A stretch of DNA of 64,000 nucleotides, taken from assembly GCF_965641715.1 (NCBI RefSeq), contig NZ_OZ282453.1, one strand, 5' to 3'. Below, in pieces: positions 10,123 through 39,812 of the stretch. The translations under genes and the position numbers were made by a program. The notes beneath the pieces were generated by a model. That model had not been told where the DNA came from. It was given only the letters and a program-made list of their open reading frames with translations, and made no database searches. Every line of letters begins with the position of its first letter. Position 1 is the first letter of the stretch. This stretch comes from Escherichia coli (GTDB lineage Bacteria > Pseudomonadota > Gammaproteobacteria > Enterobacterales > Enterobacteriaceae).

Positions 10123-11613
10123 TCATGAACGGCTGTTTTTGTTCTGCTTATTGACATATAAACGCTCATCGGAAGCTTTATACGCATCATGTAACGTATC
10201 GTTTTCTTTCATCGCGTAAATACCGGAAGAGAAGCCGATCTCTTTCTGCGGCGCGATATGTTGCAGACGTTTTTCGATACGTTCAGGCAGTTGTGCTGCA
10301 ATTTGCGGCGTCGAATCGACAAGAATGATGCAGAATTCATCGCCACCGAGTCGGATGGCATAATCACTTTTACGAATCGATTGTTTAATCGCCTGAGCTA
10401 ACAACGTAATCGCTAAATCCCCTTCCTGATGACCGAGGGTGTCATTTATTAGCTTTAACTTGTCCATGTCAATTGCAATAAACATCACCGAAGAACCGGA
10501 TTGCACCAGTTTCTGCAACCGCTGCTCCAGTTCAGGGGTTAAAATTTTGCGATTATACAGTCCAATCATCGCATCACTAATATTTTCTCGCGACACATTT
10601 TGGTATAAACGGAAGTGCATCCGGACCATATTCAGCAAAATTAACGCCGTCAAAATCCAGAACAGAACGCTTTTCCACGAAGACGTGATAAAGTAAAGAA
10701 TATCAATGGATAACGAGACACGAATGCCGCCCGGTAAGTCATGGACGTAACTGACATACTGGAACAGATTATCTTCGCTCTGGTTGATGATAATGTCGCG
10801 CCCCGAATCTGTATCGGTTAGCGTGACATTGAGAAAACGCCAGAGGAGAGGGCGGTCATGAGTGTAAAAGATATTCCGCAGATTGTTTTTGTTAATATCC
10901 AGCAGCACAATCCCTTTTAGCTGCCCTGCAACATACACCGGCGTCAGCAAACTCATCACGTTCTGTTTAGTACGCTGATCCTGGTAAATGCTCGACAATA
11001 CGGTACGCCCGGTAAATACCTTTTCAATATCTTTGCGATCGATGCCAATACTTCCTGACTGCAGGAAGGACCAGTTATTCATCGCAAAGTATTCAACATT
11101 AACCGGCTCATAAAAATAGACATAGCGGTCATTGAGATCGAGATAATAGTGAAATTTCTCTTCGGCCATCCCAAGACCTGAACCGTAATCATCCTGGTGG
11201 CGGTTGCCTTCCACTGCCTGATCAAAAGCGGGTAATAGTGCTGCAGCTTCCACAATTGTGTCGCAGTCAGTGGATGCGGTTTGTAGTGTGCCGCGTAAGC
11301 CCGGGTATTTATGGGCAGTCAGGTTTAAGCCATGGGTATTATTGGCAGACTCAAAAGCCTCGCAGATGGCGCGCCGCTGTTCTGGCGACACTTCCGACTG
11401 CTCAGCAGCGAGAGCGCGCATCACATGCGCGGCAATACTCTGATTCTGATACTTATCATAAAGAAAGGAGGAGTCTGCTTTCTGCACGATATAGCGCAGA
11501 TAGGCACTCATTGCTCTGTCGCTGGCGACAAGTTCAAAAATAAGGAAGGAAGATGTCAGCACAATGACACTTGCGGCGATAAAATGCCGGAGCATTCTAT
11601 GGTGCAATTTCAT
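10123..11613 (-). CDS. dgcJ: Membrane diguanylate cyclase with periplasmic sensor domain and GGDEF domain
   Basis: ORF 10123-11793 trimmed to the ATG at 11613 (496 aa, MKLHHRMLRHF...); RLGGDEF motif. Confidence 0.9.
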   Translation of the reverse strand: MKLHHRMLRHFIAASVIVLTSSFLIFELVASDRAMSAYLRYIVQKADSSFLYDKYQNQSIAAHVMRALAAEQSEVSPEQRRAICEAFESANNTHGLNLTAHKYPGLRGTLQTASTDCDTIVEAAALLPAFDQAVEGNRHQDDYGSGLGMAEEKFHYYLDLNDRYVYFYEPVNVEYFAMNNWSFLQSGSIGIDRKDIEKVFTGRTVLSSIYQDQRTKQNVMSLLTPVYVAGQLKGIVLLDINKNNLRNIFYTHDRPLLWRFLNVTLTDTDSGRDIIINQSEDNLFQYVSYVHDLPGGIRVSLSIDILYFITSSWKSVLFWILTALILLNMVRMHFRLYQNVSRENISDAMIGLYNRKILTPELEQRLQKLVQSGSSVMFIAIDMDKLKLINDTLGHQEGDLAITLLAQAIKQSIRKSDYAIRLGGDEFCIILVDSTPQIAAQLPERIEKRLQHIAPQKEIGFSSGIYAMKENDTLHDAYKASDERLYVNKQNKNSRS

Positions 11614-11793
11614 GATAAATGGCACTCCTTCGGTTAGTGAAACGAGAAAACCAGATAAAGTTCGATTGCGGCCTGGCACAGGGGCGCTAATTATACTCAT
11701 CTCTGCGCCGCTGGGGAGGGGAAATTTAGGGGTAATAGTAATAAATTGTATGCAAAAGCCACGCAAAAAGCATGGCTCTGAATATTTTTGCAC

Positions 11794-13269
11794 TTAAATA
11801 TGATGAATAATCACTTTGTTGCCCCCCTCGCTTTTCGCTTCGCGTAAGGCTTTATCTGCTTCCGTCATGACAAGCGAGATATTACGCGTGTCACCCGTTG
11901 AAAAAACCGTGCCAATACTGATGGTCATTTGTTCAGGAACATCATATCTGTTACTAAAGCCGGTCAGGAGTTCGACATTTTTACGCATACGTTCCGCAAT
12001 GATTTTTGCCTGGGCACTATTGAGTTCGGTAAATAGCAAGCCAAACACCTCACCCTCCAGTCGCGCTAAAATATCATCGGGGCGGATGCTTTGCTGGATA
12101 ATATCGACAATTGAAACCAGCACTTTATCACCCACACGATGTCCCCATTGGGCATTGATGCGTTTGAACTGATTAATATCAACCAGCATGACACAGAAGT
12201 CCTTAACAACAGGTCGCGACAATAATGACTCTACGCTGTTGAAAAAGTAGCGCCGATTGTAAATATTGGTCAGCACATCATGAACTGCCAGTTTGCTGGA
12301 GAGTTGCAGCTCCTGAAAAATGTTATAAATCAGAAAAGACACAACAAACAGTTTACTGGAGACTTCAATCCCGCGACTGATATACCAGATGGTATAATTA
12401 TACTCATCCAGAGTCAGTAGAAGTAAGTTGCAGCATAGCGATGCCAGACATAATAATGCTATTAACGGCCATAGTTCGCTGGCTAATCGTGTACGCATGA
12501 TAATAAAGAACAGTAAAAATGCCCACAGACAAACCAATATTTTTGTATAGTTGATTCCCCAGGTCGCAGTATGGTTGTCCGGACAGTAATCGACGACATA
12601 CAAAGAATAGTCAGCGTTATAACTGCTCAGATTGTGTGCCAGAAGGGGAAAAACTAAAAAAGGAATCAGCGCCAGCAACAGAATGCCAGTTTTTTTCTTA
12701 TTGTTGTCAAGGATGTTGTCTTTTCCATAACAAAAGAGCGCCAGCGAGGTTAAACAAATAAAACTGAGTTGGCGGAAAATATAGAAAATAGAAACATCAT
12801 TCGACTTTGTCTGGATCAGTGTACTGCCGTTAATTGGTTTATGGATAATTACAATGGTTTCAACTAAATAGATAAGGCCACTTAAAAATGCAAGGCTTAA
12901 AATGAGTGTTGGTAAAATTTGTTTGTTAGTGAAATATTTCATTAACATGAAAAGAAAAATGACGGCGTTAAGGAAAAACAAAGCCACAACAACCATCAGG
13001 TAATTCATCTGTGGGATGAGTTTTACATTTGTGTTTTCGTTATATAAGGTAGTAATGCAAAATAAAATTAACGTCAGCAATAAACTGAAAATAAAAAAGC
13101 TTTGAGCTTTTAATTTTTGTGTACCCATAGAAACCATAAAAAGGAGAGCAATGTGAGTGCTGGATTTTATTGATGGCAGAGATATATGGTTTTGACCAGG
13201 ATCAATTTTCGTTAACGATAAAAAATATTTAAAGAATAACCCCATGGAAATACGTGTTGACTGAATCAT
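11794..13269 (-). CDS. cdgI: Membrane protein with degenerate GGDEF domain (c-di-GMP binding, CdgI)
   Basis: 491-aa ORF; multi-TM N-terminal half; C-terminal GGDEF fold whose motif reads EGEVF instead of GGDEF; AT-rich. Confidence 0.85.
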   Translation of the reverse strand: MIQSTRISMGLFFKYFLSLTKIDPGQNHISLPSIKSSTHIALLFMVSMGTQKLKAQSFFIFSLLLTLILFCITTLYNENTNVKLIPQMNYLMVVVALFFLNAVIFLFMLMKYFTNKQILPTLILSLAFLSGLIYLVETIVIIHKPINGSTLIQTKSNDVSIFYIFRQLSFICLTSLALFCYGKDNILDNNKKKTGILLLALIPFLVFPLLAHNLSSYNADYSLYVVDYCPDNHTATWGINYTKILVCLWAFLLFFIIMRTRLASELWPLIALLCLASLCCNLLLLTLDEYNYTIWYISRGIEVSSKLFVVSFLIYNIFQELQLSSKLAVHDVLTNIYNRRYFFNSVESLLSRPVVKDFCVMLVDINQFKRINAQWGHRVGDKVLVSIVDIIQQSIRPDDILARLEGEVFGLLFTELNSAQAKIIAERMRKNVELLTGFSNRYDVPEQMTISIGTVFSTGDTRNISLVMTEADKALREAKSEGGNKVIIHHI

Positions 13270-13415
13270 TTTTCCGAATGATTGTTTTCTGGAACTAAAT
13301 TATGTAAAGGTTATGCTGTCATATTTAAAGCGATTGTAAGCTAATGTATGTAATAAATGAGATAATTTACAGTAAGCTAAAAATCAGCCAGGCGATAATG
13401 ACCCGGCTGATAGTT

Positions 13416-14711
<1,296 letters not shown>

Positions 14712-24822: not shown

Positions 24823-25866
24823 ATGAAAAATTCAAAAGCAATATTGCAGGTGCCGGGCACAATGAAAATTATTTCAGCAGAAATACCAGTGCCTAAAGAA
24901 GATGAAGTTTTGATTAAAGTAGAATATGTCGGTATTTGTGGTTCAGATGTACATGGTTTTGAATCAGGTCCGTTTATTCCGCCTAAAGACCCAAATCAAG
25001 AAATTGGCCTGGGTCATGAATGCGCCGGGACGGTTGTGGCTGTGGGAAGCCGCGTGCGCAAATTTAAACCGGGGGATCGGGTAAATATCGAACCTGGCGT
25101 TCCTTGCGGTCACTGTCGTTACTGTCTGGAAGGCAAATATAACATCTGCCCGGACGTTGATTTTATGGCGACACAACCCAACTACCGCGGCGCATTAACG
25201 CACTATCTGTGTCATCCGGAGAGCTTTACTTACAAACTGCCCGACAATATGGACACGATGGAAGGGGCGCTGGTGGAGCCTGCCGCAGTCGGGATGCATG
25301 CCGCGATGCTGGCAGATGTTAAACCGGGTAAGAAGATAATTATTCTGGGAGCAGGTTGTATTGGTTTGATGACGTTGCAAGCGTGCAAATGCCTGGGAGC
25401 AACGGAAATTGCCGTCGTTGATGTGCTGGAAAAACGTCTGGCAATGGCGGAACAGCTTGGTGCGACAGTGGTTATTAACGGCGCAAAAGAAGACACTATT
25501 GCACGCTGTCAGCAATTTACCGAAGACATGGGCGCAGATATTGTTTTCGAAACAGCGGGTTCTGCGGTCACCGTTAAACAGGCACCTTATCTGGTAATGC
25601 GCGGCGGTAAAATTATGATTGTTGGTACTGTACCCGGCGATTCGGCAATCAATTTCCTCAAAATAAATCGCGAAGTTACTATCCAGACGGTATTCCGCTA
25701 CGCCAATCGTTATCCGGTCACGATTGAAGCTATTTCTTCAGGGCGATTCGATGTGAAATCGATGGTGACGCATATTTACGATTATCGGGATGTACAACAG
25801 GCATTTGAAGAGTCAGTTAACAATAAACGCGACATTATTAAAGGCGTTATTAAGATTAGCGATTAA
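24823..25866 (+). CDS. ydjJ: Zinc-dependent dehydrogenase (MDR family)
   Basis: 347-aa ORF with GICGSDVH and GHE motifs. Confidence 0.9.
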   Translation: MKNSKAILQVPGTMKIISAEIPVPKEDEVLIKVEYVGICGSDVHGFESGPFIPPKDPNQEIGLGHECAGTVVAVGSRVRKFKPGDRVNIEPGVPCGHCRYCLEGKYNICPDVDFMATQPNYRGALTHYLCHPESFTYKLPDNMDTMEGALVEPAAVGMHAAMLADVKPGKKIIILGAGCIGLMTLQACKCLGATEIAVVDVLEKRLAMAEQLGATVVINGAKEDTIARCQQFTEDMGADIVFETAGSAVTVKQAPYLVMRGGKIMIVGTVPGDSAINFLKINREVTIQTVFRYANRYPVTIEAISSGRFDVKSMVTHIYDYRDVQQAFEESVNNKRDIIKGVIKISD

Positions 25867-25886
25867 TTAATACGGGAGAACAGAAC

Positions 25887-26723
25887 ATGCTCGCAGATAT
25901 CAGATATTGGGAAAACGATGCCACAAATAAACGTTATGCTATTGCCCATTTTAATGTATGGAATGCAGAAATGTTGATGGGCGTTATCGACGCAGCCGAA
26001 GAAGCGAAATCACCGGTTATTATTTCTTTTGGCACAGGTTTTGTCGGCAACACCTCATTTGAAGATTTCTCTCACATGATGGTATCAATGGCACAAAAAG
26101 CAACGGTGCCGGTAATAACTCATTGGGATCATGGTCGGAGTATGGAGATTATTCATAACGCCTGGACTCATGGGATGAATTCATTAATGCGTGATGCTTC
26201 CGCATTTGATTTCGAAGAAAATATTCGTTTAACCAAAGAGGCTGTTGATTTTTTCCATCCGCTGGGTATTCCGGTAGAGGCGGAATTAGGGCATGTCGGT
26301 AATGAAACCGTTTATGAGGAAGCTCTGGCGGGCTATCACTATACCGATCCTGACCAGGCGGCTGAATTTGTTGAACGTACGGGCTGTGACTCATTGGCTG
26401 TCGCCATCGGCAACCAGCATGGGGTTTATACGTCAGAGCCACAATTGAACTTTGAGGTCGTCAAACGCGTACGCGATGCCGTGTCTGTTCCGCTGGTTTT
26501 GCATGGCGCATCGGGGATCAGTGATGCCGACATTAAAACTGCAATTTCGTTGGGTATCGCGAAAATCAACATCCATACGGAGCTCTGTCAGGCCGCAATG
26601 GTCGCAGTGAAAGAAAACCAGGATCAGCCTTTCCTGCATTTAGAACGTGAAGTACGTAAAGCTGTAAAAGAACGGGCATTGGAAAAAATTAAACTGTTCG
26701 GTTCTGATGGCAAAGCGGAATAA
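25887..26723 (+). CDS. ydjI: Class II (metal-dependent) aldolase
   Basis: 278-aa ORF, fructose-bisphosphate/tagatose-bisphosphate aldolase-like. Confidence 0.9.
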   Translation: MLADIRYWENDATNKRYAIAHFNVWNAEMLMGVIDAAEEAKSPVIISFGTGFVGNTSFEDFSHMMVSMAQKATVPVITHWDHGRSMEIIHNAWTHGMNSLMRDASAFDFEENIRLTKEAVDFFHPLGIPVEAELGHVGNETVYEEALAGYHYTDPDQAAEFVERTGCDSLAVAIGNQHGVYTSEPQLNFEVVKRVRDAVSVPLVLHGASGISDADIKTAISLGIAKINIHTELCQAAMVAVKENQDQPFLHLEREVRKAVKERALEKIKLFGSDGKAE

Positions 26724-26727
26724 TGAT

Positions 26728-27675
26728 ATGGATAATCTCGACGTTATTTGTATAGGTGCCGCTATTGTTGATATTCCATTGCAACCGGTCAGTAAAAATA
26801 TCTTTGATGTGGATTCTTATCCTCTTGAAAGAATCGCAATGACCACCGGGGGTGATGCAATAAATGAAGCAACAATTATTTCTCGTCTGGGCCATCGCAC
26901 AGCATTAATGAGTCGTGTTGGTAAAGATGCCGCAGGGCAGTTTATTCTCGACCATTGCCGCAAAGAGAATATTGATATTCAAAGCCTGAAACAGGACGTC
27001 AACATAGATACCTCTATTAACGTAGGACTGGTGACGGAGGATGGCGAGCGGACGTTTGTCACAAACCGTAACGGCAGTCTGTGGAAATTGAATATTGACG
27101 ATGTTGATTTTGCGCGGTTTTCTCAGGCGAAATTATTATCACTGGCCAGTATTTTCAACAGTCCACTATTAGATGGTAAAGCGCTAACAGAAATTTTTAC
27201 GCAAGCTAAAGCCCGGCAGATGATTATCTGTGCCGATATGATCAAACCGCGGTTGAATGAAACGCTGGATGATATTTGCGAAGCATTGAGTTATGTCGAT
27301 TATCTGTTTCCTAATTATGCCGAGGCAAAATTACTCACCGGGAAAGAGACACTGGATGAAATTGCTGACTGCTTTCTTGCGTGCGGCGTAAAAACGGTGG
27401 TGATTAAAACGGGTAAAGACGGCTGCTTTATCAAGCGTGGTGACATGACGATGAAGGTGCCGGCGGTCGCAGGAATAACCGCCATCGACACCATTGGCGC
27501 GGGCGATAACTTTGCTTCAGGTTTTATTGCGGCACTGTTAGAAGGCAAAAATCTGCGTGAATGCGCACGCTTTGCCAATGCAACGGCGGCTATCTCGGTT
27601 CTAAGCGTCGGTGCCACCACCGGCGTAAAAAACAGAAAGCTGGTCGAACAATTGCTGGAAGAATACGAAGGATAA
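26728..27675 (+). CDS. ydjH: PfkB-family sugar kinase
   Basis: ORF 26707-27675 trimmed to the ATG at 26728 (315 aa, MDNLDVICIG...); GAGDNF motif. Confidence 0.9.
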   Translation: MDNLDVICIGAAIVDIPLQPVSKNIFDVDSYPLERIAMTTGGDAINEATIISRLGHRTALMSRVGKDAAGQFILDHCRKENIDIQSLKQDVNIDTSINVGLVTEDGERTFVTNRNGSLWKLNIDDVDFARFSQAKLLSLASIFNSPLLDGKALTEIFTQAKARQMIICADMIKPRLNETLDDICEALSYVDYLFPNYAEAKLLTGKETLDEIADCFLACGVKTVVIKTGKDGCFIKRGDMTMKVPAVAGITAIDTIGAGDNFASGFIAALLEGKNLRECARFANATAAISVLSVGATTGVKNRKLVEQLLEEYEG

Positions 27676-27684
27676 TGAAGGCAA

Positions 27685-28665
27685 ATGAAAAAGATACCTT
27701 TAGGCACAACGGATATAACGCTTTCGCGAATGGGTTTGGGGACATGGGCCATTGGCGGCGGTCCTGCATGGAATGGCGATCTCGATCGGCAAATATGTAT
27801 TGATACGATTCTTGAAGCCCATCGTTGCGGCATTAATCTGATTGATACTGCGCCAGGATATAACTTTGGCAATAGTGAAGTTATCGTCGGTCAGGCGTTA
27901 AAAAAACTGCCCCGTGAACAGGTTGTAGTAGAAACCAAATGCGGCATTGTCTGGGAACGAAAAGGGAGTTTATTCAACAAAGTTGGCGATCGGCAGTTGT
28001 ATAAAAACCTTTCCCCGGAATCTATCCGCGAAGAGGTAGAAGCCAGCTTGCAACGTCTGGGTATTGATTACATCGATATCTACATGACGCACTGGCAGTC
28101 GGTGCCGCCATTTTATACGCCGATCGCTGAAACTGTCGCAGTGCTTAATGAGTTAAAGGCTGAAGGGAAAATTCGCGCTATAGGCGCTGCTAACGTCGAT
28201 GCTGACCATATCCGCGAGTATCTGCAATATGGTGAACTGGATATTATTCAGGCGAAATACAGTATCCTCGACCGGGCAATGGAAAACGAACTGCTGCCGC
28301 TATGTCGTGATAATGGCATTGTGGTTCAGGTTTATTCCCCGCTAGAGCAGGGATTGTTGACCGGCACCATCACTCGTGATTACGTTCCGGGCGGCGCTCG
28401 GGCAAATAAAGTCTGGTTCCAGCGTGAAAACATGCTGAAAGTGATTGATATGCTTGAACAGTGGCAGCCACTTTGTGCTCGTTATCAGTGCACAATTCCC
28501 ACTCTGGCACTGGCGTGGATATTAAAACAGAGTGATTTAATCTCCATTCTTAGTGGGGCTACTGCACCGGAACAGGTACGCGAAAATGTCGCGGCACTGA
28601 ATATCAACTTATCGGATGCAGACGCAACATTGATGAGGGAAATGGCAGAGGCCCTGGAGCGTTAA
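27685..28665 (+). CDS. ydjG: Aldo-keto reductase
   Basis: 326-aa AKR-family ORF. Confidence 0.9.
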   Translation: MKKIPLGTTDITLSRMGLGTWAIGGGPAWNGDLDRQICIDTILEAHRCGINLIDTAPGYNFGNSEVIVGQALKKLPREQVVVETKCGIVWERKGSLFNKVGDRQLYKNLSPESIREEVEASLQRLGIDYIDIYMTHWQSVPPFYTPIAETVAVLNELKAEGKIRAIGAANVDADHIREYLQYGELDIIQAKYSILDRAMENELLPLCRDNGIVVQVYSPLEQGLLTGTITRDYVPGGARANKVWFQRENMLKVIDMLEQWQPLCARYQCTIPTLALAWILKQSDLISILSGATAPEQVRENVAALNINLSDADATLMREMAEALER

Positions 28666-28801
28666 ATACTCAACACGATTCACCTCTGTTTCTGTGAAAA
28701 CTGTGATGAAAATCTGTGATTCAAACAGGTTATTTTGAAAGTAAACATCGGTTATGCGATAATCGTGCTAATGTGATGTAAAAAGATACAGGGGTGTAAT
28801 C

Positions 28802-29560
28802 GTGGCGGCAAAAGACAGGATTCAGGCAATTAAGCAAATGGTTGCCAACGATAAAAAGGTGACAGTCTCAAATTTGAGTGGGATTTTTCAGGTAACCGAA
28901 GAAACCATTCGCCGCGATCTTGAGAAGCTGGAAGATGAAGGCTTTTTGACCAGAACTTATGGTGGTGCTGTTTTAAATACAGCGATGTTGACGGAGAATA
29001 TTCATTTTTATAAGCGCGCTTCATCGTTTTATGAAGAGAAGCAGCTTATTGCACGCAAGGCACTACCCTTTATCGACAATAAAACCACCATGGCAGCCGA
29101 TTCCAGTAGTACCGTAATGGAATTGCTCAAATTGTTACAGGACCGTAGTGACCTGACGTTGCTAACCAACTCGGCGGAAGCGATTCATGTTCTGGCTCAG
29201 TCAGAAATTAAAGTCGTTTCAACGGGTGGGGAACTAAACAAAAATACACTTTCACTGCAAGGAAGAATTACTAAAGAGATCATCAGCCGCTATCATGTCG
29301 ATATCATGGTAATGAGTTGTAAAGGTCTTGATATTAACAGCGGCGCGCTGGACTCTAATGAAGCGGAAGCTGAAATCAAAAAGACAATGATCCGTCAGGC
29401 GACAGAAGTTGCGTTATTGGTTGATCACTCTAAGTTTGATCGCAAAGCTTTTGTCCAGTTAGCTGACTTTAGTCATATTAATTACATAATAACTGATAAA
29501 TCACCGGGTGCAGAGTGGATAGCATTTTGCAAAGACAATAATATCCAGCTGGTGTGGTAA
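28802..29560 (+). CDS. ydjF: DeoR-family transcriptional regulator
   Basis: 252-aa ORF with a GTG start; N-terminal HTH and DeoR C-domain. Confidence 0.9.
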   Translation: MAAKDRIQAIKQMVANDKKVTVSNLSGIFQVTEETIRRDLEKLEDEGFLTRTYGGAVLNTAMLTENIHFYKRASSFYEEKQLIARKALPFIDNKTTMAADSSSTVMELLKLLQDRSDLTLLTNSAEAIHVLAQSEIKVVSTGGELNKNTLSLQGRITKEIISRYHVDIMVMSCKGLDINSGALDSNEAEAEIKKTMIRQATEVALLVDHSKFDRKAFVQLADFSHINYIITDKSPGAEWIAFCKDNNIQLVW

Positions 29561-29677
29561 TTTAAGCACACGTTGTCAATATTATTTGTTCCTGCGCCTG
29601 GAAATAAAATGATGATAAAGATGCGGCAAGTGAATTTGCCGCAATTGCTACCTTTTTTAGCAAATCCGAGGCACCCA

Positions 29678-31036
29678 ATGGAACAATATGATCAAATTGG
29701 CGCAAGACTGGACCGCTTGCCTTTGGCCCGGTTTCATTATCGTATATTTGGTATTATAAGCTTTAGTCTGTTATTAACAGGGTTTTTGAGTTACTCCGGT
29801 AATGTCGTCTTAGCAAAGCTGGTAAGCAATGGATGGTCAAATAATTTCCTCAATGCCGCCTTTACCTCGGCATTAATGTTTGGTTATTTCATCGGCTCTC
29901 TTACCGGTGGGTTCATCGGTGATTACTTTGGGCGGCGCAGGGCGTTTCGCATAAATCTTCTCATCGTCGGTATTGCTGCAACAGGGGCCGCTTTTGTCCC
30001 TGATATGTACTGGCTCATCTTCTTTCGCTTCCTGATGGGAACAGGAATGGGGGCGCTGATTATGGTTGGCTATGCCTCATTTACGGAGTTTATCCCCGCG
30101 ACGGTGCGTGGAAAATGGTCCGCGCGGCTCTCATTTGTTGGTAACTGGTCGCCCATGCTGTCTGCGGCGATAGGTGTGGTGGTTATCGCTTTTTTTAGTT
30201 GGCGGATAATGTTTCTGTTGGGTGGTATTGGCATACTGTTAGCCTGGTTTCTCTCAGGTAAATACTTTATCGAGTCGCCACGATGGCTGGCAGGGAAAGG
30301 GCAAATCGCAGGTGCAGAATGCCAACTTCGTGAAGTAGAGCAGCAAATTGAAAGAGAGAAGAGTATTCGTTTACCCCCGCTTACTTCGTATCAGAGCAAC
30401 AGCAAGGTTAACGTAATCAAGGGTACTTTCTGGCTCCTGTTTAAAGGTGAAATGTTACGACGTACATTAGTCGCGATTACTGTTTTAATTGCAATGAACA
30501 TTTCGCTTTATACCATCACCGTATGGATACCGACCATATTTGTTAACTCCGGCATTGATGTCGATAAATCAATATTAATGACCGCTGTTATTATGATTGG
30601 CGCTCCGGTAGGAATATTTATTGCGGCATTAATTATTGATCATTTTCCTCGTCGGTTATTTGGCTCCACCTTACTTATTATTATTGCCGTGTTAGGCTAT
30701 ATCTATTCAATTCAGACTACAGAGTGGGCGATTTTAATCTATGGCCTGGTGATGATCTTCTTTTTATACATGTATGTTTGCTTCGCGTCGGCGGTTTATA
30801 TCCCGGAGCTTTGGCCAACGCATTTACGCCTGCGCGGTTCGGGTTTCGTTAATGCCGTCGGACGGATCGTCGCAGTCTTCACGCCCTATGGCGTTGCGGC
30901 ATTATTAACACATTATGGGTCGATCACGGTGTTTATGGTGCTTGGTGTTATGTTAGTGCTCTGTGCGCTGGTTCTCTCTATTTTTGGCATCGAAACGCGG
31001 AAGGTGTCGTTGGAAGAGATTTCTGAGGTGAATTAA
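29678..31036 (+). CDS. ydjE: MFS transporter
   Basis: ORF 29573-31036 trimmed to the ATG at 29678 (452 aa, MEQYDQIGARL...); paralogous to ydjK. Confidence 0.9.
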   Translation: MEQYDQIGARLDRLPLARFHYRIFGIISFSLLLTGFLSYSGNVVLAKLVSNGWSNNFLNAAFTSALMFGYFIGSLTGGFIGDYFGRRRAFRINLLIVGIAATGAAFVPDMYWLIFFRFLMGTGMGALIMVGYASFTEFIPATVRGKWSARLSFVGNWSPMLSAAIGVVVIAFFSWRIMFLLGGIGILLAWFLSGKYFIESPRWLAGKGQIAGAECQLREVEQQIEREKSIRLPPLTSYQSNSKVNVIKGTFWLLFKGEMLRRTLVAITVLIAMNISLYTITVWIPTIFVNSGIDVDKSILMTAVIMIGAPVGIFIAALIIDHFPRRLFGSTLLIIIAVLGYIYSIQTTEWAILIYGLVMIFFLYMYVCFASAVYIPELWPTHLRLRGSGFVNAVGRIVAVFTPYGVAALLTHYGSITVFMVLGVMLVLCALVLSIFGIETRKVSLEEISEVN

Positions 31037-38645: not shown

Positions 38646-38684
38646 GCGAGCGAATCTTTCGTGCTATTCGAGTCATATTCTGAA

Positions 38685-38723
38685 ATATCCAGCGGATCAA
38701 GAAAATTCGTTGGATATTTTTTT
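38685..38723 (+). terminator. Candidate rho-independent terminator after topB
   Basis: Imperfect hairpin atatccagcg...cgttggatat followed by a 7-T run. Confidence 0.45.
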
Positions 38724-38771
38724 GCATGGATAAAATTATCGCCTCTAAAGTATGTAATAACAGGGAATGTG

Positions 38772-39812
38772 ATGAAAAAAGTTTTATTACAAAACCATCC
38801 TGGGAGCGAGAAGTATTCTTTTAATGGCTGGGAAATATTTAATAGTAATTTTGAACGGATGATTAAAGAAAATAAGGCCATGCTGCTTTGTAAGTGGGGA
38901 GGTTATTTAACATGTGTTGTCGCTGTAATGTTTGTATTCGCAGCGATAACATCCAACGGTTTGAATGAAAGAGGCCTGATTACTGCGGGATGCTCTTTTC
39001 TTTATCTATTAATTATGATGGGGCTTATTGTTCGGGCCGGTTTTAAAGCAAAAAAAGAACAACTGCATTATTATCAGGCTAAAGGTATTGAGCCGCTCAG
39101 TATCGAGAAGTTACAGGCGCTACAATTGATCGCACCTTATCGATTCTATCATAAGCAATGGTCTGAAACGCTGGAGTTCTGGCCGCGAAAGCCTGAACCT
39201 GGCAAAGATACCTTCCAATATCATGTGCTTCCTTTTGACTCGATCAATATCATTAGTAAAAGACGCGAGTCTTTAGAGGATCAATGGGGTATCGAAGATA
39301 GCGAAAGTTATTGTGCCTTAATGGAGCATTTTCTTTCTGGCGACCATGGAGCCAATACCTTTAAAGCAAACATGGAGGAAGCCCCAGAGCAGGTTATCGC
39401 CTTGTTGAATAAATTTGCTGTTTTTCCCTCAGATTATATCTCTGATTGCGCTAATAATCGCTCCGGTAAATCCTCGGCGAAGCTAATATGGGCGGCGGAA
39501 TTATCATGGATGATCTCGATATCAAGCACAGCTTTTCAAAACGGGACAATTGAAGAAGAACTGGCCTGGCATTATATAATGCTTGCTTCTCGAAAGGCGC
39601 ACGAGTTGTTCGAAAGCGAAGAAGATGATCAAAAAAATAGTCTAATGGGATTTCTTTACTGGCATATCTGCTGCTATCGCAGAAAGTTAACGGATGCTGA
39701 ACTTGAAGCGTGTTATCGTTACGACAAGCAGTTTTGGGAGCACTACAGTAAGAAATGCCGTTGGCCCATAAGAAATGTTCCCTGGGGAGCATCATCCGTT
39801 AAATACTCATAA
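38772..39812 (+). CDS. ynjI: DUF1266 inner-membrane protein
   Basis: ORF 38661-39812 trimmed to the ATG at 38772 (346 aa, MKKVLLQNHPG...); AT-rich. Confidence 0.8.
   Translation: MKKVLLQNHPGSEKYSFNGWEIFNSNFERMIKENKAMLLCKWGGYLTCVVAVMFVFAAITSNGLNERGLITAGCSFLYLLIMMGLIVRAGFKAKKEQLHYYQAKGIEPLSIEKLQALQLIAPYRFYHKQWSETLEFWPRKPEPGKDTFQYHVLPFDSINIISKRRESLEDQWGIEDSESYCALMEHFLSGDHGANTFKANMEEAPEQVIALLNKFAVFPSDYISDCANNRSGKSSAKLIWAAELSWMISISSTAFQNGTIEEELAWHYIMLASRKAHELFESEEDDQKNSLMGFLYWHICCYRRKLTDAELEACYRYDKQFWEHYSKKCRWPIRNVPWGASSVKYS

Follow-up and report, generated by a model that had tools for sequence, protein, structure and literature searches.

Classical targets of xenogeneic silencing by H-NS are bgl, proU, LEE and the SPI islands, and the 10-bp high-affinity H-NS motif is TCGATAAATT. 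In Escherichia coli, H-NS binding has also been catalogued for yeaI (b1785, cdgI), a gene located between yeaH and yeaJ (dgcJ). Higashi et al. 2016 (PMC4720273, S2 table and supplementary file 7) score yeaI as TRUE/TRUE/TRUE for H-NS with class L/N, and the yeaH-yeaI spacer as TRUE. The promoter-island catalogue of Shavkunov/Panyukov/Ozoline assigns the code 'A' to the island in yeaI, which stands for H-NS binding in all compiled ChIP studies, and lists the gene as predicted foreign by GIST, Nakamura and Lawrence (PMC3661553 Table 1). The same work mentions derepression for four unnamed promoter islands. The gene product CdgI has been described as a c-di-GMP-binding protein with a degenerate A-site and an intact I-site, which is undetectable in laboratory conditions and toxic when over-expressed; CsrA is mentioned in connection with cdgI expression (PMC5635695). 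In addition, RstA binds the yeaI promoter in EMSA (PMC6824119), SrsR (YgfI) shows a gSELEX peak between yeaH and cdgI and activates the gene (PMC9181523), and AppY has cdgI among its directly regulated genes (PMC10057817).

Here, we analyse the composition, domain architecture, synteny, selection pattern and translation start of cdgI in a 64-kb stretch of E. coli DNA (the window), which is 99.17% identical to MG1655 without gaps, with 11794-13415 as the interval of interest; H-NS occupancy, absent expression and regulator binding are taken from the literature. AT-richness, foreign-gene prediction and H-NS occupancy of the locus are already known, and since AT-richness and H-NS binding have been published, their recovery here is correct and ordinary and adds little. 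Modestly new are the split of the composition into amino-acid and synonymous parts, its extent across the protein family, the neighbour-like synonymous divergence, and the non-coding evolution of annotated codons 1-44; as side results, these are of limited practical use. With a probability of roughly 0.7, we read cdgI as an AT-rich gene silenced by H-NS, which has the composition of its family, entered long ago and was inherited vertically thereafter.

Base composition of the cdgI locus

Genes were positioned by offset mapping of their coordinates, which placed 31 genes in the first 45 kb of the window; for K-12 coordinates, the window position equals 1883654 minus the U00096.3 coordinate. Codon usage was assessed by GC per codon position, amino-acid-expected GC and the fraction of rare codons, and cdgI was compared with a set of 25 further annotated genes with a length of 300 nt or more. 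The original prediction, that yeaI and its upstream region are AT-rich relative to their flanks, holds. The interval has a GC content of 0.380 against 0.498 for the window, the minimum among same-size stretches of the 64 kb, and the 0.5% of such stretches that are equally low all overlap the cdgI locus. The annotated coding sequence has a GC content of 0.386, which is unevenly distributed: the upstream region and the MASE4 half form an AT-rich core, which has the lowest GC of any 900-bp stretch in the 64 kb, whereas the GGDEF-coding 3′ part reaches about 44%, in line with dgcJ next door (45.8%). With 33.5% GC against 49.8% window-wide, this core has the AT-richness expected of an H-NS-silenced locus, and its density of A4/T4 tracts is 55.7 per kb, compared with 16.9 per kb in the window.

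Further compositional claims fared differently. The 146-bp upstream region, described as almost entirely A/T, is 67.8% A+T. The supposed contrast to the adjacent genes is found for yeaH (GC 0.493) and only partly for dgcJ, which at 0.458 is itself below average and whose GGDEF part (0.436) is level with that of cdgI (0.445). An abundance of AAA/AAT/ATT/TTT codons was confirmed, as these account for 18.3% of cdgI codons compared with 11.7% (sd 2.8) on average, the maximum of the window, though ydjH follows with 17.5%.

Compared with the 25 other genes, cdgI deviates with z-scores of -3.4 for total GC, -3.5 for GC1 and -2.4 for GC2, and of only -1.5 for GC3, which is 0.44. The MASE4 part of the gene has 36.8% GC, with 57% of its residues being F, L, I, M, N, K or Y. 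Amino-acid composition alone predicts 41.8% GC and thereby covers about 70% of the GC deficit, leaving about 30% to synonymous sites; classical rare codons are ordinary (3.7% vs a mean of 3.6%), and GC2 lies between 0.29 and 0.34 in every member of the MASE4-GGDEF family. Such values could be taken to mean that AT-richness is purely a by-product of the protein, with the codons of the membrane domain driving it, H-NS binding being incidental and low expression having other causes, for instance a weak promoter or CsrA. We consider this unlikely, since other membrane-protein genes in the window (nimT, yeaL, ydjE, ydjK) have 45-56% GC and GC3 in the first 260 cdgI codons is 0.40 instead of the expected 0.52. 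Moreover, the probably non-coding leader described below, about 280 bp in length, is equally AT-rich (32.7% GC), likewise in all orthologues, and published H-NS occupancy extends to the spacer.

Spacer, leader and translation start

The features of the locus are compiled in Table 1. CdgI has the architecture of the MASE4-GGDEF proteins (CdgI/DgcT/DgcX), with an N-terminal MASE4 domain followed by a C-terminal GGDEF domain. In agreement with PMC5635695, the canonical GG(D/E)EF motif of an active diguanylate cyclase is absent; the window and every Escherichia allele carry the degenerate A-site EGEVF (12043-12057), with an RxxD I-site (RPDD) just upstream of it, while more distant orthologues have a GGEEF active site.

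Table 1. Coordinates of features at the cdgI locus, given as positions in the window.
Feature	Position	Strand	Basis or remark
cdgI (yeaI, b1785) as annotated, 491 aa	11794..13269	-	ORF list; RefSeq annotation of matching E. coli genomes and MG1655
Conserved cdgI coding sequence, 447 aa from Met45 (ATG 13137-13135)	11794..13137	-	relatives start at Met45 or Met48
GGDEF domain, aa 328-485	11815..12288	-	Pfam PF00990, E = 9.1e-45
MASE4 integral-membrane sensor domain, aa 88-319	12313..13008	-	Pfam PF17158, E = 1.4e-48
AppY ChIP-seq peak, inside cdgI	12425	.	U00096.3 coordinate 1871229, PMC10057817
AT-rich core: upstream region and 5′ cdgI to about codon 255	12500..13400	-	33.5% GC
Promoter island 1868534_304 inside yeaI	12839..13142	.	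PMC3661553 Table 1
Annotated codons 1-44, non-coding-like evolution	13138..13269	-	indels, substitution pattern, dN/dS
Small hairpin AAUCAUU-CGGAAA-AAUGAUU, GGA in loop	13264..13283	-	in MFE and centroid folds
Annotated yeaH-cdgI intergenic region, 146 bp	13270..13415	-	32.2% GC; H-NS-bound in PMC4720273 supplementary file 7
Sigma-70-like promoter candidate: TTTACA, 16 nt, AACAAT	13281..13308	-	9/12 positions match
SrsR (YgfI) box GCATAACCTTT	13306..13316	-	reverse complement of aaAGgTTaTGC; box sequence from PMC9181523
RstA-box-like TACATTAGCTTACA	13335..13348	-	12/14 positions match the assumed consensus
Terminator-like hairpin and T-run just past the yeaH stop	13383..13411	-	11-bp stem, 6 GC pairs, then TTTTTAGC

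The annotated start of cdgI is at odds with its evolution. Downstream of the conserved start, substitutions fall 28/2/62 on codon positions 1/2/3, with dN/dS values of 0.03-0.06. In annotated codons 1-44, they are uniformly distributed (45/48/40, p=0.69), dN/dS is 1.1-1.6, and 1-nt indels occur in three of the five other Escherichia lineages; GC3 is 0.28 over the first 60 annotated codons. The alternative start Met48 (ATG 13128-13126, 444 aa) is the sole start in frame in 6/6 Escherichia sequences. Judged by this pattern of substitutions and indels, annotated codons 1-44 are probably a 5′ leader and not protein. A start at Met45 or Met48 gives the AT-rich leader a length of about 280 bp. If true, it would affect how CdgI, a c-di-GMP effector that is still little understood, should be fused to reporters, tagged at its locus or cloned for expression.

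In the leader RNA, the small hairpin holds the annotated ATG in its 3′ arm and is kept only in the lineages nearest to E. coli; with its GGA loop, it is a candidate for CsrA binding, which we regard as a lead and not as a result. The leader fold has no unusual stability (z = +0.72), and a scan of 11400-13800 against Rfam at E <= 1 gave zero matches.

At the far end of the spacer, the terminator-like stem is kept across Escherichia and likely marks the end of the yeaGH transcript. The RstA-like box was scored against a consensus which we take to be TACATNTNGTTACA, and it may represent the site of RstA at the yeaI promoter. The TTTACA hexamer of the promoter candidate is invariant in 6 Escherichia sequences. 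A strict promoter scan showed no excess, finding 2 sites in the core and, over 8 kb, 11 vs 12.2 expected. Hexamers resembling a -10 box occur in the core at 15.3 per kb vs 6.0 in the window (2.5x), a number that stays below composition-matched shuffles (13 observed vs 21 +/- 5). The promoter island was placed by assuming that U00096.2 and U00096.3 are offset by about 1978 bp, and its position is therefore good to a few bases only.

Distribution, synteny and age of cdgI

The comparative set consisted of 80 retrieved loci, with Salmonella and E. fergusonii being absent from it. The gene was found in 5410 of 5426 complete E. coli genomes and also in E. albertii, E. whittamii and cryptic Escherichia lineages. 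In Citrobacter-like genomes, the slot between yeaH and dgcJ harbors cdgI orthologues with 57-77% identity, next to DgcJ with 63-67%. Most sampled species of Citrobacter, Kluyvera and Klebsiella have this junction without cdgI; their gaps hold unrelated genes differing by genus, and no cdgI remnants were found in them. The distribution across genera is thus patchy, yet cdgI is core in Escherichia and syntenic in the Citrobacter-like genomes. Within Escherichia, its dS is 0.54-0.71 against 0.32-0.78 for the neighbours, with dN/dS values of 0.08-0.10, and since synonymous divergence equals that of the neighbours, any transfer must be ancient.

A search for mobile-element signatures at cdgI revealed no integrase or transposase, no tRNA and no flanking repeats, and the insert is a single gene; the flanking direct-repeat search returned only short, chance-like pairs. 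Empty (Citrobacter) and occupied sites align only inside the coding sequences of yeaH and dgcJ, and the insertion boundaries are therefore unmappable. Separately, an allelic replacement was considered for 'E. coli E69' (L003), where CdgI is 89% and YeaH 100% identical; it was rejected because DNA identity is 85-95% over the entire region, L003 simply being a divergent lineage.

Relatives of cdgI occur in accessory surroundings. One MASE4-GGDEF gene (L089, possibly DgcX) lies beside lambdoid tail-fibre genes at 29% GC, and another (L091) has a plasmid-like context beside ParM/ParE genes at 30% GC. Together with the foreign label given by composition-based predictors and the cargo at the yeaH-dgcJ junction that varies by genus, they would suit a recent horizontal acquisition, in which a young foreign gene between yeaH and yeaJ still carries the unameliorated signature of an AT-rich donor. 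Presence in nearly all E. coli genomes and across Escherichia, cross-genus synteny, a dS like that of the neighbours and the lack of an integrase, tRNA or flanking repeats contradict this, and we regard it as very improbable. Horizontal acquisition, as originally proposed from the composition, hence survives in a weak and ancient sense only: predictors, patchy genera and the phage- and plasmid-associated relatives speak for it, while its recent form fails on the same-slot orthologues, the divergence data, the missing mobile-element signature and a deficit which is about 70% amino-acid-driven and common to dgcT. In this ancient sense, we infer a transfer. Most likely, cdgI would have entered long ago from an AT-rich pool into the ancestor of Escherichia and some Citrobacter lineages, and would since then have passed down vertically while purifying selection acted on it, its third codon positions moving part of the way to the host composition. 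Ancestral presence followed by multiple losses fits the data alike.

AT-richness would accordingly be a property of the MASE4-GGDEF family and no mark of recent arrival, owing about 70% to a protein rich in Phe, Leu, Ile, Asn, Lys and Tyr and about 30% to AT-biased synonymous sites. The family-wide pattern is an example of how composition-based "foreign gene" calls can pick out core genes that are old and vertically inherited, their composition being set mainly by the protein. The orthologues L083, L085 and L086 and the Escherichia sequences L003-L007 have 36-39% GC, and their spacers measure 278-296 bp with 30-40% GC, so that AT-richness and spacer length persist down to 57% protein identity. 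The separately located paralogue dgcT shows the same composition split, over-expression is toxic (PMC5635695), and several regulators bind the region. From this one could argue for a selected silencing module, in which AT-richness is kept by selection and a toxic protein remains under H-NS control until counter-silencers act, an adaptation and not a relic. Such persistence, however, is equally expected from protein constraint and slow amelioration. Across the family, GC3 varies from 0.26 to 0.58 and is highest in L090, whose flanking DNA has 56% GC, and this speaks against selection for one fixed AT level. As a full explanation, a selected module appears quite improbable to us.

A milder, joint reading is put forward tentatively, as possible though falling short of probable. 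It holds that the 491-aa annotation starts 44-47 codons early, with the true start at Met45 or Met48, and that the AT-richness of leader and MASE4 part is conserved and possibly selected, keeping a toxic MASE4-GGDEF protein under H-NS in Escherichia, in Citrobacter-like lineages and at dgcT. A resident core gene would then use the xenogeneic silencer as its normal off-switch, in place of being a relic of recent transfer.

Probable silencing by H-NS and comparison with described systems

According to our preferred reading of an old, family-typical gene, the stretch of about 0.9 kb at about 33% GC, running from the yeaH terminator through the leader of about 280 bp into the first 255 or so codons, would serve as a binding platform for H-NS. 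Filaments of H-NS over the promoter and the 5′ coding region would hold cdgI essentially silent in ordinary growth, and SrsR, AppY and RstA would be the specific regulators acting at the same region. H-NS-type silencing had been predicted from the composition together with a comparison to ChIP data; this comparison agrees, as both yeaI and the yeaH-yeaI spacer are H-NS-bound (PMC4720273, PMC3661553), and CdgI is undetectable (PMC5635695), the support for silencing being published data throughout. No published derepression test in an hns or hns stpA mutant specific to cdgI was found in the literature. Allowing two mismatches or fewer, the high-affinity motif (TCGATAAATT) has 1 match in 916 bp vs 1.8 per kb window-wide; in the absence of enrichment, it provides no evidence for a specific nucleation site. 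H-NS occupancy may well be the cause of the silence of cdgI; low expression could instead result from a weak promoter or from CsrA.

The closest precedent is the promoter-island catalogue, which covers the identical locus with an island inside the AT-rich core, H-NS-bound in all studies and predicted foreign. In contrast to the catalogue, which relies on the PlatProm algorithm and calls an island where promoter-like sites are unusually dense along 300 bp or more, simple consensus scans show no promoter excess beyond composition here, and the catalogued 304 bp amount to a third of the AT-rich tract.

The K-12 paralogue dgcT (ycdT) comes very close to cdgI in its composition, with 38.6% GC overall, 35.3% in MASE4, 44.0% in GGDEF and 34% in the upstream spacer, and its product is likewise undetectable in laboratory culture (PMC5635695). 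It differs in its canonical GGEEF active site, as opposed to EGEVF in CdgI, and in its chromosomal location adjoining pgaABCD and IS3. The phage-adjacent and plasmid-like relatives share the MASE4-GGDEF architecture at 38-42% identity and are even more AT-rich (GC3 0.26-0.27 against 0.44 in cdgI), but they have a canonical GGEEF and accessory contexts, whereas cdgI is core chromosomal.

With the classical targets of xenogeneic silencing, cdgI has in common a GC content about 12-16 points below that of the genome, H-NS over promoter and 5′ coding region, silence in the laboratory and dedicated regulators binding to the same region. Unlike these targets, it is a single core gene with neither an island nor mobility genes, vertically inherited with its neighbours across Escherichia.

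Composition of the cdgI region

We favour a three-part account, to which we give a probability of roughly 0.7. H-NS would be recruited by some 0.9 kb of AT-rich DNA covering the leader and 5' coding sequence of cdgI (formerly yeaI), and would keep CdgI, a c-di-GMP effector that is toxic and not normally expressed, silent until specific regulators come into play; the AT-richness would be a long-standing family property and no recent scar.

The original prediction that cdgI and its upstream region are AT-rich relative to their flanks was confirmed. The region 11794-13415 has a GC content of 38.0% vs 49.8% for the window, only 0.5% of same-size windows are equally low, each overlapping the cdgI locus, and the lowest 900-bp window in the 64 kb lies at cdgI (33.5% GC). 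Against 25 other annotated genes, the GC content of cdgI has z = -3.4, and AAA, AAT, ATT and TTT make up 18.3% of its codons (mean 11.7%), an enrichment likewise predicted. The AT-richness resides mostly in about 12500-13400, which takes in the sequence upstream of the gene and its N-terminal half with MASE4; the GGDEF third has 44% GC. The upstream 146 bp, thought to be almost entirely A/T, are 67.8% A+T, and the supposed contrast with both neighbours is sharp for yeaH only (49.3% GC); dgcJ (yeaJ), with 45.8% GC, is itself below average and its GGDEF part equals that of cdgI in GC content. The dgcJ coordinates used for that contrast were probably those of its longest ORF (10123-11793, GTG start, 556 aa), which reaches the cdgI stop codon; the RefSeq gene (10123-11613, 496 aa) leaves a 180-bp spacer of 45% GC.

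The GC deficit is most pronounced at the first (GC1 0.42, z = -3.5) and second (GC2 0.31, z = -2.4) codon positions and least so at the third (GC3 about 0.43-0.44, z = -1.5). Phe, Leu, Ile, Met, Asn, Lys and Tyr constitute 50% of the CdgI residues. Since CdgI re-coded with the average synonymous usage of the window still has only 41.8% GC, amino-acid composition accounts for about 70% of this shortfall and the choice among synonymous codons for about 30%. Membrane-protein status is insufficient as an explanation, because the membrane-protein genes nimT, yeaL, ydjE and ydjK have 45-56% GC. No over-use of classical rare codons was found in cdgI.

Elsewhere in the window, the second-lowest GC content (900-bp windows just under 40%) is found at 38661-39812 and coincides with a 383-aa plus-strand ORF, presumably ynjI by its position. 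The ydj sugar-utilisation cluster (ydjJ-ydjE, 24823-31036) is moderately AT-rich (42-47% GC, GC3 0.43-0.49), and the share of AAA, AAT, ATT and TTT codons in ydjH (17.5%) almost reaches that of cdgI.

Features of cdgI and its homologues (window positions unless stated otherwise; GC values given as gene, MASE4 part, GC3)
Feature	Position	Strand	Details
cdgI (b1785)	11794-13269	minus	as annotated
Spacer cdgI to yeaH stop codon	upstream of annotated cdgI		146 bp; belongs to region studied (11794-13415)
MASE4 membrane domain	aa 88-319		Pfam, E = 1.4e-48
GGDEF domain	aa 328-485		Pfam, E = 9.1e-45
Annotated codons 1-44	13138-13269		1-nt indels in 3/5 other lineages; substitutions at positions 1/2/3 = 45/48/40, uniform (p = 0.69)
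Codons 2-44			dN/dS 1.1-1.6
Downstream of Met45			substitutions at positions 1/2/3 = 28/2/62 (p = 1.5e-13)
Downstream of Met48			1-nt indels: none
Codons 48-106			dN/dS 0.03-0.06
Same-slot orthologues	yeaH-dgcJ slot		36-39%, 34-37%, 0.38-0.45
dgcT (ycdT; L088), E. coli paralogue	MG1655 1092876-1094234		38.6%, 35.3%, 0.41
L090, chromosomal, flanks 56% GC			47%, 44%, 0.58
L089, beside lambdoid tail-fibre genes	L089 5001-6332		29%, 28%, 0.26
L091, plasmid-like, beside ParM/ParE genes	L091 5001-6332		30%, 30%, 0.27

Reading frame and start codon

Of 5426 complete E. coli genomes, 5424 were matched by a 2.1-kb query around cdgI and 5410 contained most of it, with the annotation yeaH-cdgI-dgcJ every time; none of the complete RefSeq E. 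coli genomes was identical to the query (best 99.8%). MG1655 is colinear with the window without gaps and thus the coordinates interconvert (window position = 1883654 minus U00096.3 coordinate), while the identity of 99.17% over 9 kb indicates that the window derives from a non-K-12 strain.

All relatives outside the K-12-type allele (444-448 aa) start at the residue corresponding to Met45 or Met48, and the annotated 491-aa frame is therefore probably 44-47 codons longer than the gene itself. In an alignment of six Escherichia sequences, codons 1-44 evolve like non-coding DNA, and the 44 N-terminal residues are probably outside the conserved CdgI protein. A start at Met45 gives a spacer of 278 bp (278-296 bp in the orthologues) and, as read from alignments, an N-terminus resembling that of DgcT. 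Met48 (ATG 13128-13126) is the sole start that is in frame in all six sequences, L007 from Escherichia having a 1-nt insertion between Met45 and Met48. The annotated ATG is located within the 3' arm of a small GGA-loop hairpin (13264-13283), and only a few bases separate it from the top-scoring promoter-like site upstream (13281-13308), the TTTACA of which is invariant.

Within the MASE4 domain, the segment 12601-12900 (about aa 124-223, comprising loops and the helices next to them) shows 79-80% DNA identity to other Escherichia lineages with flanks of about 90%, and thus forms a local hypervariable patch.

H-NS binding and silence

With the coordinate conversion and an offset between U00096.2 and U00096.3 that we take to be about 1978 bp, the "promoter island" 1868534_304 maps to roughly 12839-13142, within the AT-rich core. 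Table 1 of PMC3661553 places this island within yeaI and records its overlap with a GIST island. Both Nakamura et al. and Lawrence and Ochman predicted it to be foreign, and every ChIP study in that compilation has it bound by H-NS. Higashi et al. 2016 (PMC4720273) likewise place yeaI among the horizontally transferred genes (class L/N) and among those bound by H-NS, with dN = 0.0012 and dS = 0.044 within E. coli, and score the yeaH-yeaI spacer as H-NS-bound (supplementary file 7). According to Sarenko et al. [quoted passage not shown] Of the predicted silencing by H-NS, both occupancy and silence are therefore on record, and we infer that the one causes the other; no cdgI-specific test in an hns mutant was found in the literature. 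Within the AT-rich core, neither enrichment of the specific high-affinity H-NS motif nor an excess of promoter-like hexamers over the composition expectation was detected.

Specific regulators have been described. SrsR is an activator of cdgI that binds in the interval between this gene and yeaH (PMC9181523), its published box mapping to 13306-13316; in EHEC, RstA causes a mobility shift of the yeaI promoter (PMC6824119), and an AppY ChIP peak lies within cdgI (PMC10057817; window position 12425). AT-richness, H-NS occupancy and the foreign prediction are already in the literature, to which the re-annotated start codon and the composition shared across the family add little.

Descent of cdgI and its family

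Among 80 species-representative loci anchored on YeaH, a full-length MASE4-GGDEF gene between yeaH and dgcJ was present only in Escherichia (L003-L007). In several Citrobacter and Kluyvera species dgcJ directly follows yeaH (gaps of 136-160 bp), other Citrobacter carry opposite-strand ORFs of 256 and 136 aa in this gap, and Klebsiella, Kluyvera and Pseudocitrobacter have other ORFs downstream of yeaH (loci L008-L082). These ORFs are putatively unrelated cargo, and the slot downstream of yeaH varies in content across Enterobacteriaceae. The yeaH-dgcJ gaps of other genera contained no remnants of cdgI, and empty and occupied sites align within the flanking genes only.

The order yeaH-cdgI-dgcJ-yeaK is shared by homologues of 57-77% identity, one named from Citrobacter sp. 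Awk 4. DgcJ in these genomes is 63-67% identical to that of the window, so the divergence of cdgI is similar to that of its neighbour. Among the Escherichia lineages, the dS of cdgI (0.54-0.71) matches that of yeaG, yeaH, dgcJ and yeaK (0.32-0.78), and its dN/dS of 0.08-0.10 indicates purifying selection that is 2-4x looser than on dgcJ and yeaK. The cdgI locus has neither mobility genes nor repeats at its flanks. Given this synteny, the neighbour-like dS and the lack of mobility signs, recent transfer is unsupported, and of the predicted horizontal acquisition only an ancient event stands; the data are compatible with an ancient gain or with ancestral presence and repeated loss. The active-site motif EGEVF (12043-12057, RxxD I-site directly upstream) is degenerate. 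In alignments, it or a variant occurs in the Escherichia alleles and the 64-77% relatives, whereas the 57-62% same-slot orthologues of Citrobacter-like genomes keep the canonical GGEEF, and thus the cyclase site apparently decayed on the way to Escherichia.

The MASE4-GGDEF family seems to travel with accessory or mobile DNA: L089, from an E. coli assembly, directly adjoins lambdoid phage tail-fibre and Lom genes, and both L089 and L091 have GGEEF sites. Across the family GC2 is fixed (0.29-0.34) and GC3 varies (0.26-0.58), with its maximum in the copy whose flanking DNA is richest in GC and an intermediate value in cdgI (0.44). This pattern fits AT-richness imposed by the protein together with partial amelioration, and is consistent with cdgI having been acquired long ago from a pool of AT-rich accessory genes. 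The upstream spacers of the same-slot orthologues (278-296 bp) have 30-40% GC. In dgcT, the GGDEF part has 44.0% GC and the upstream spacer 34%, and the composition of this paralogue is almost exactly like that of cdgI.
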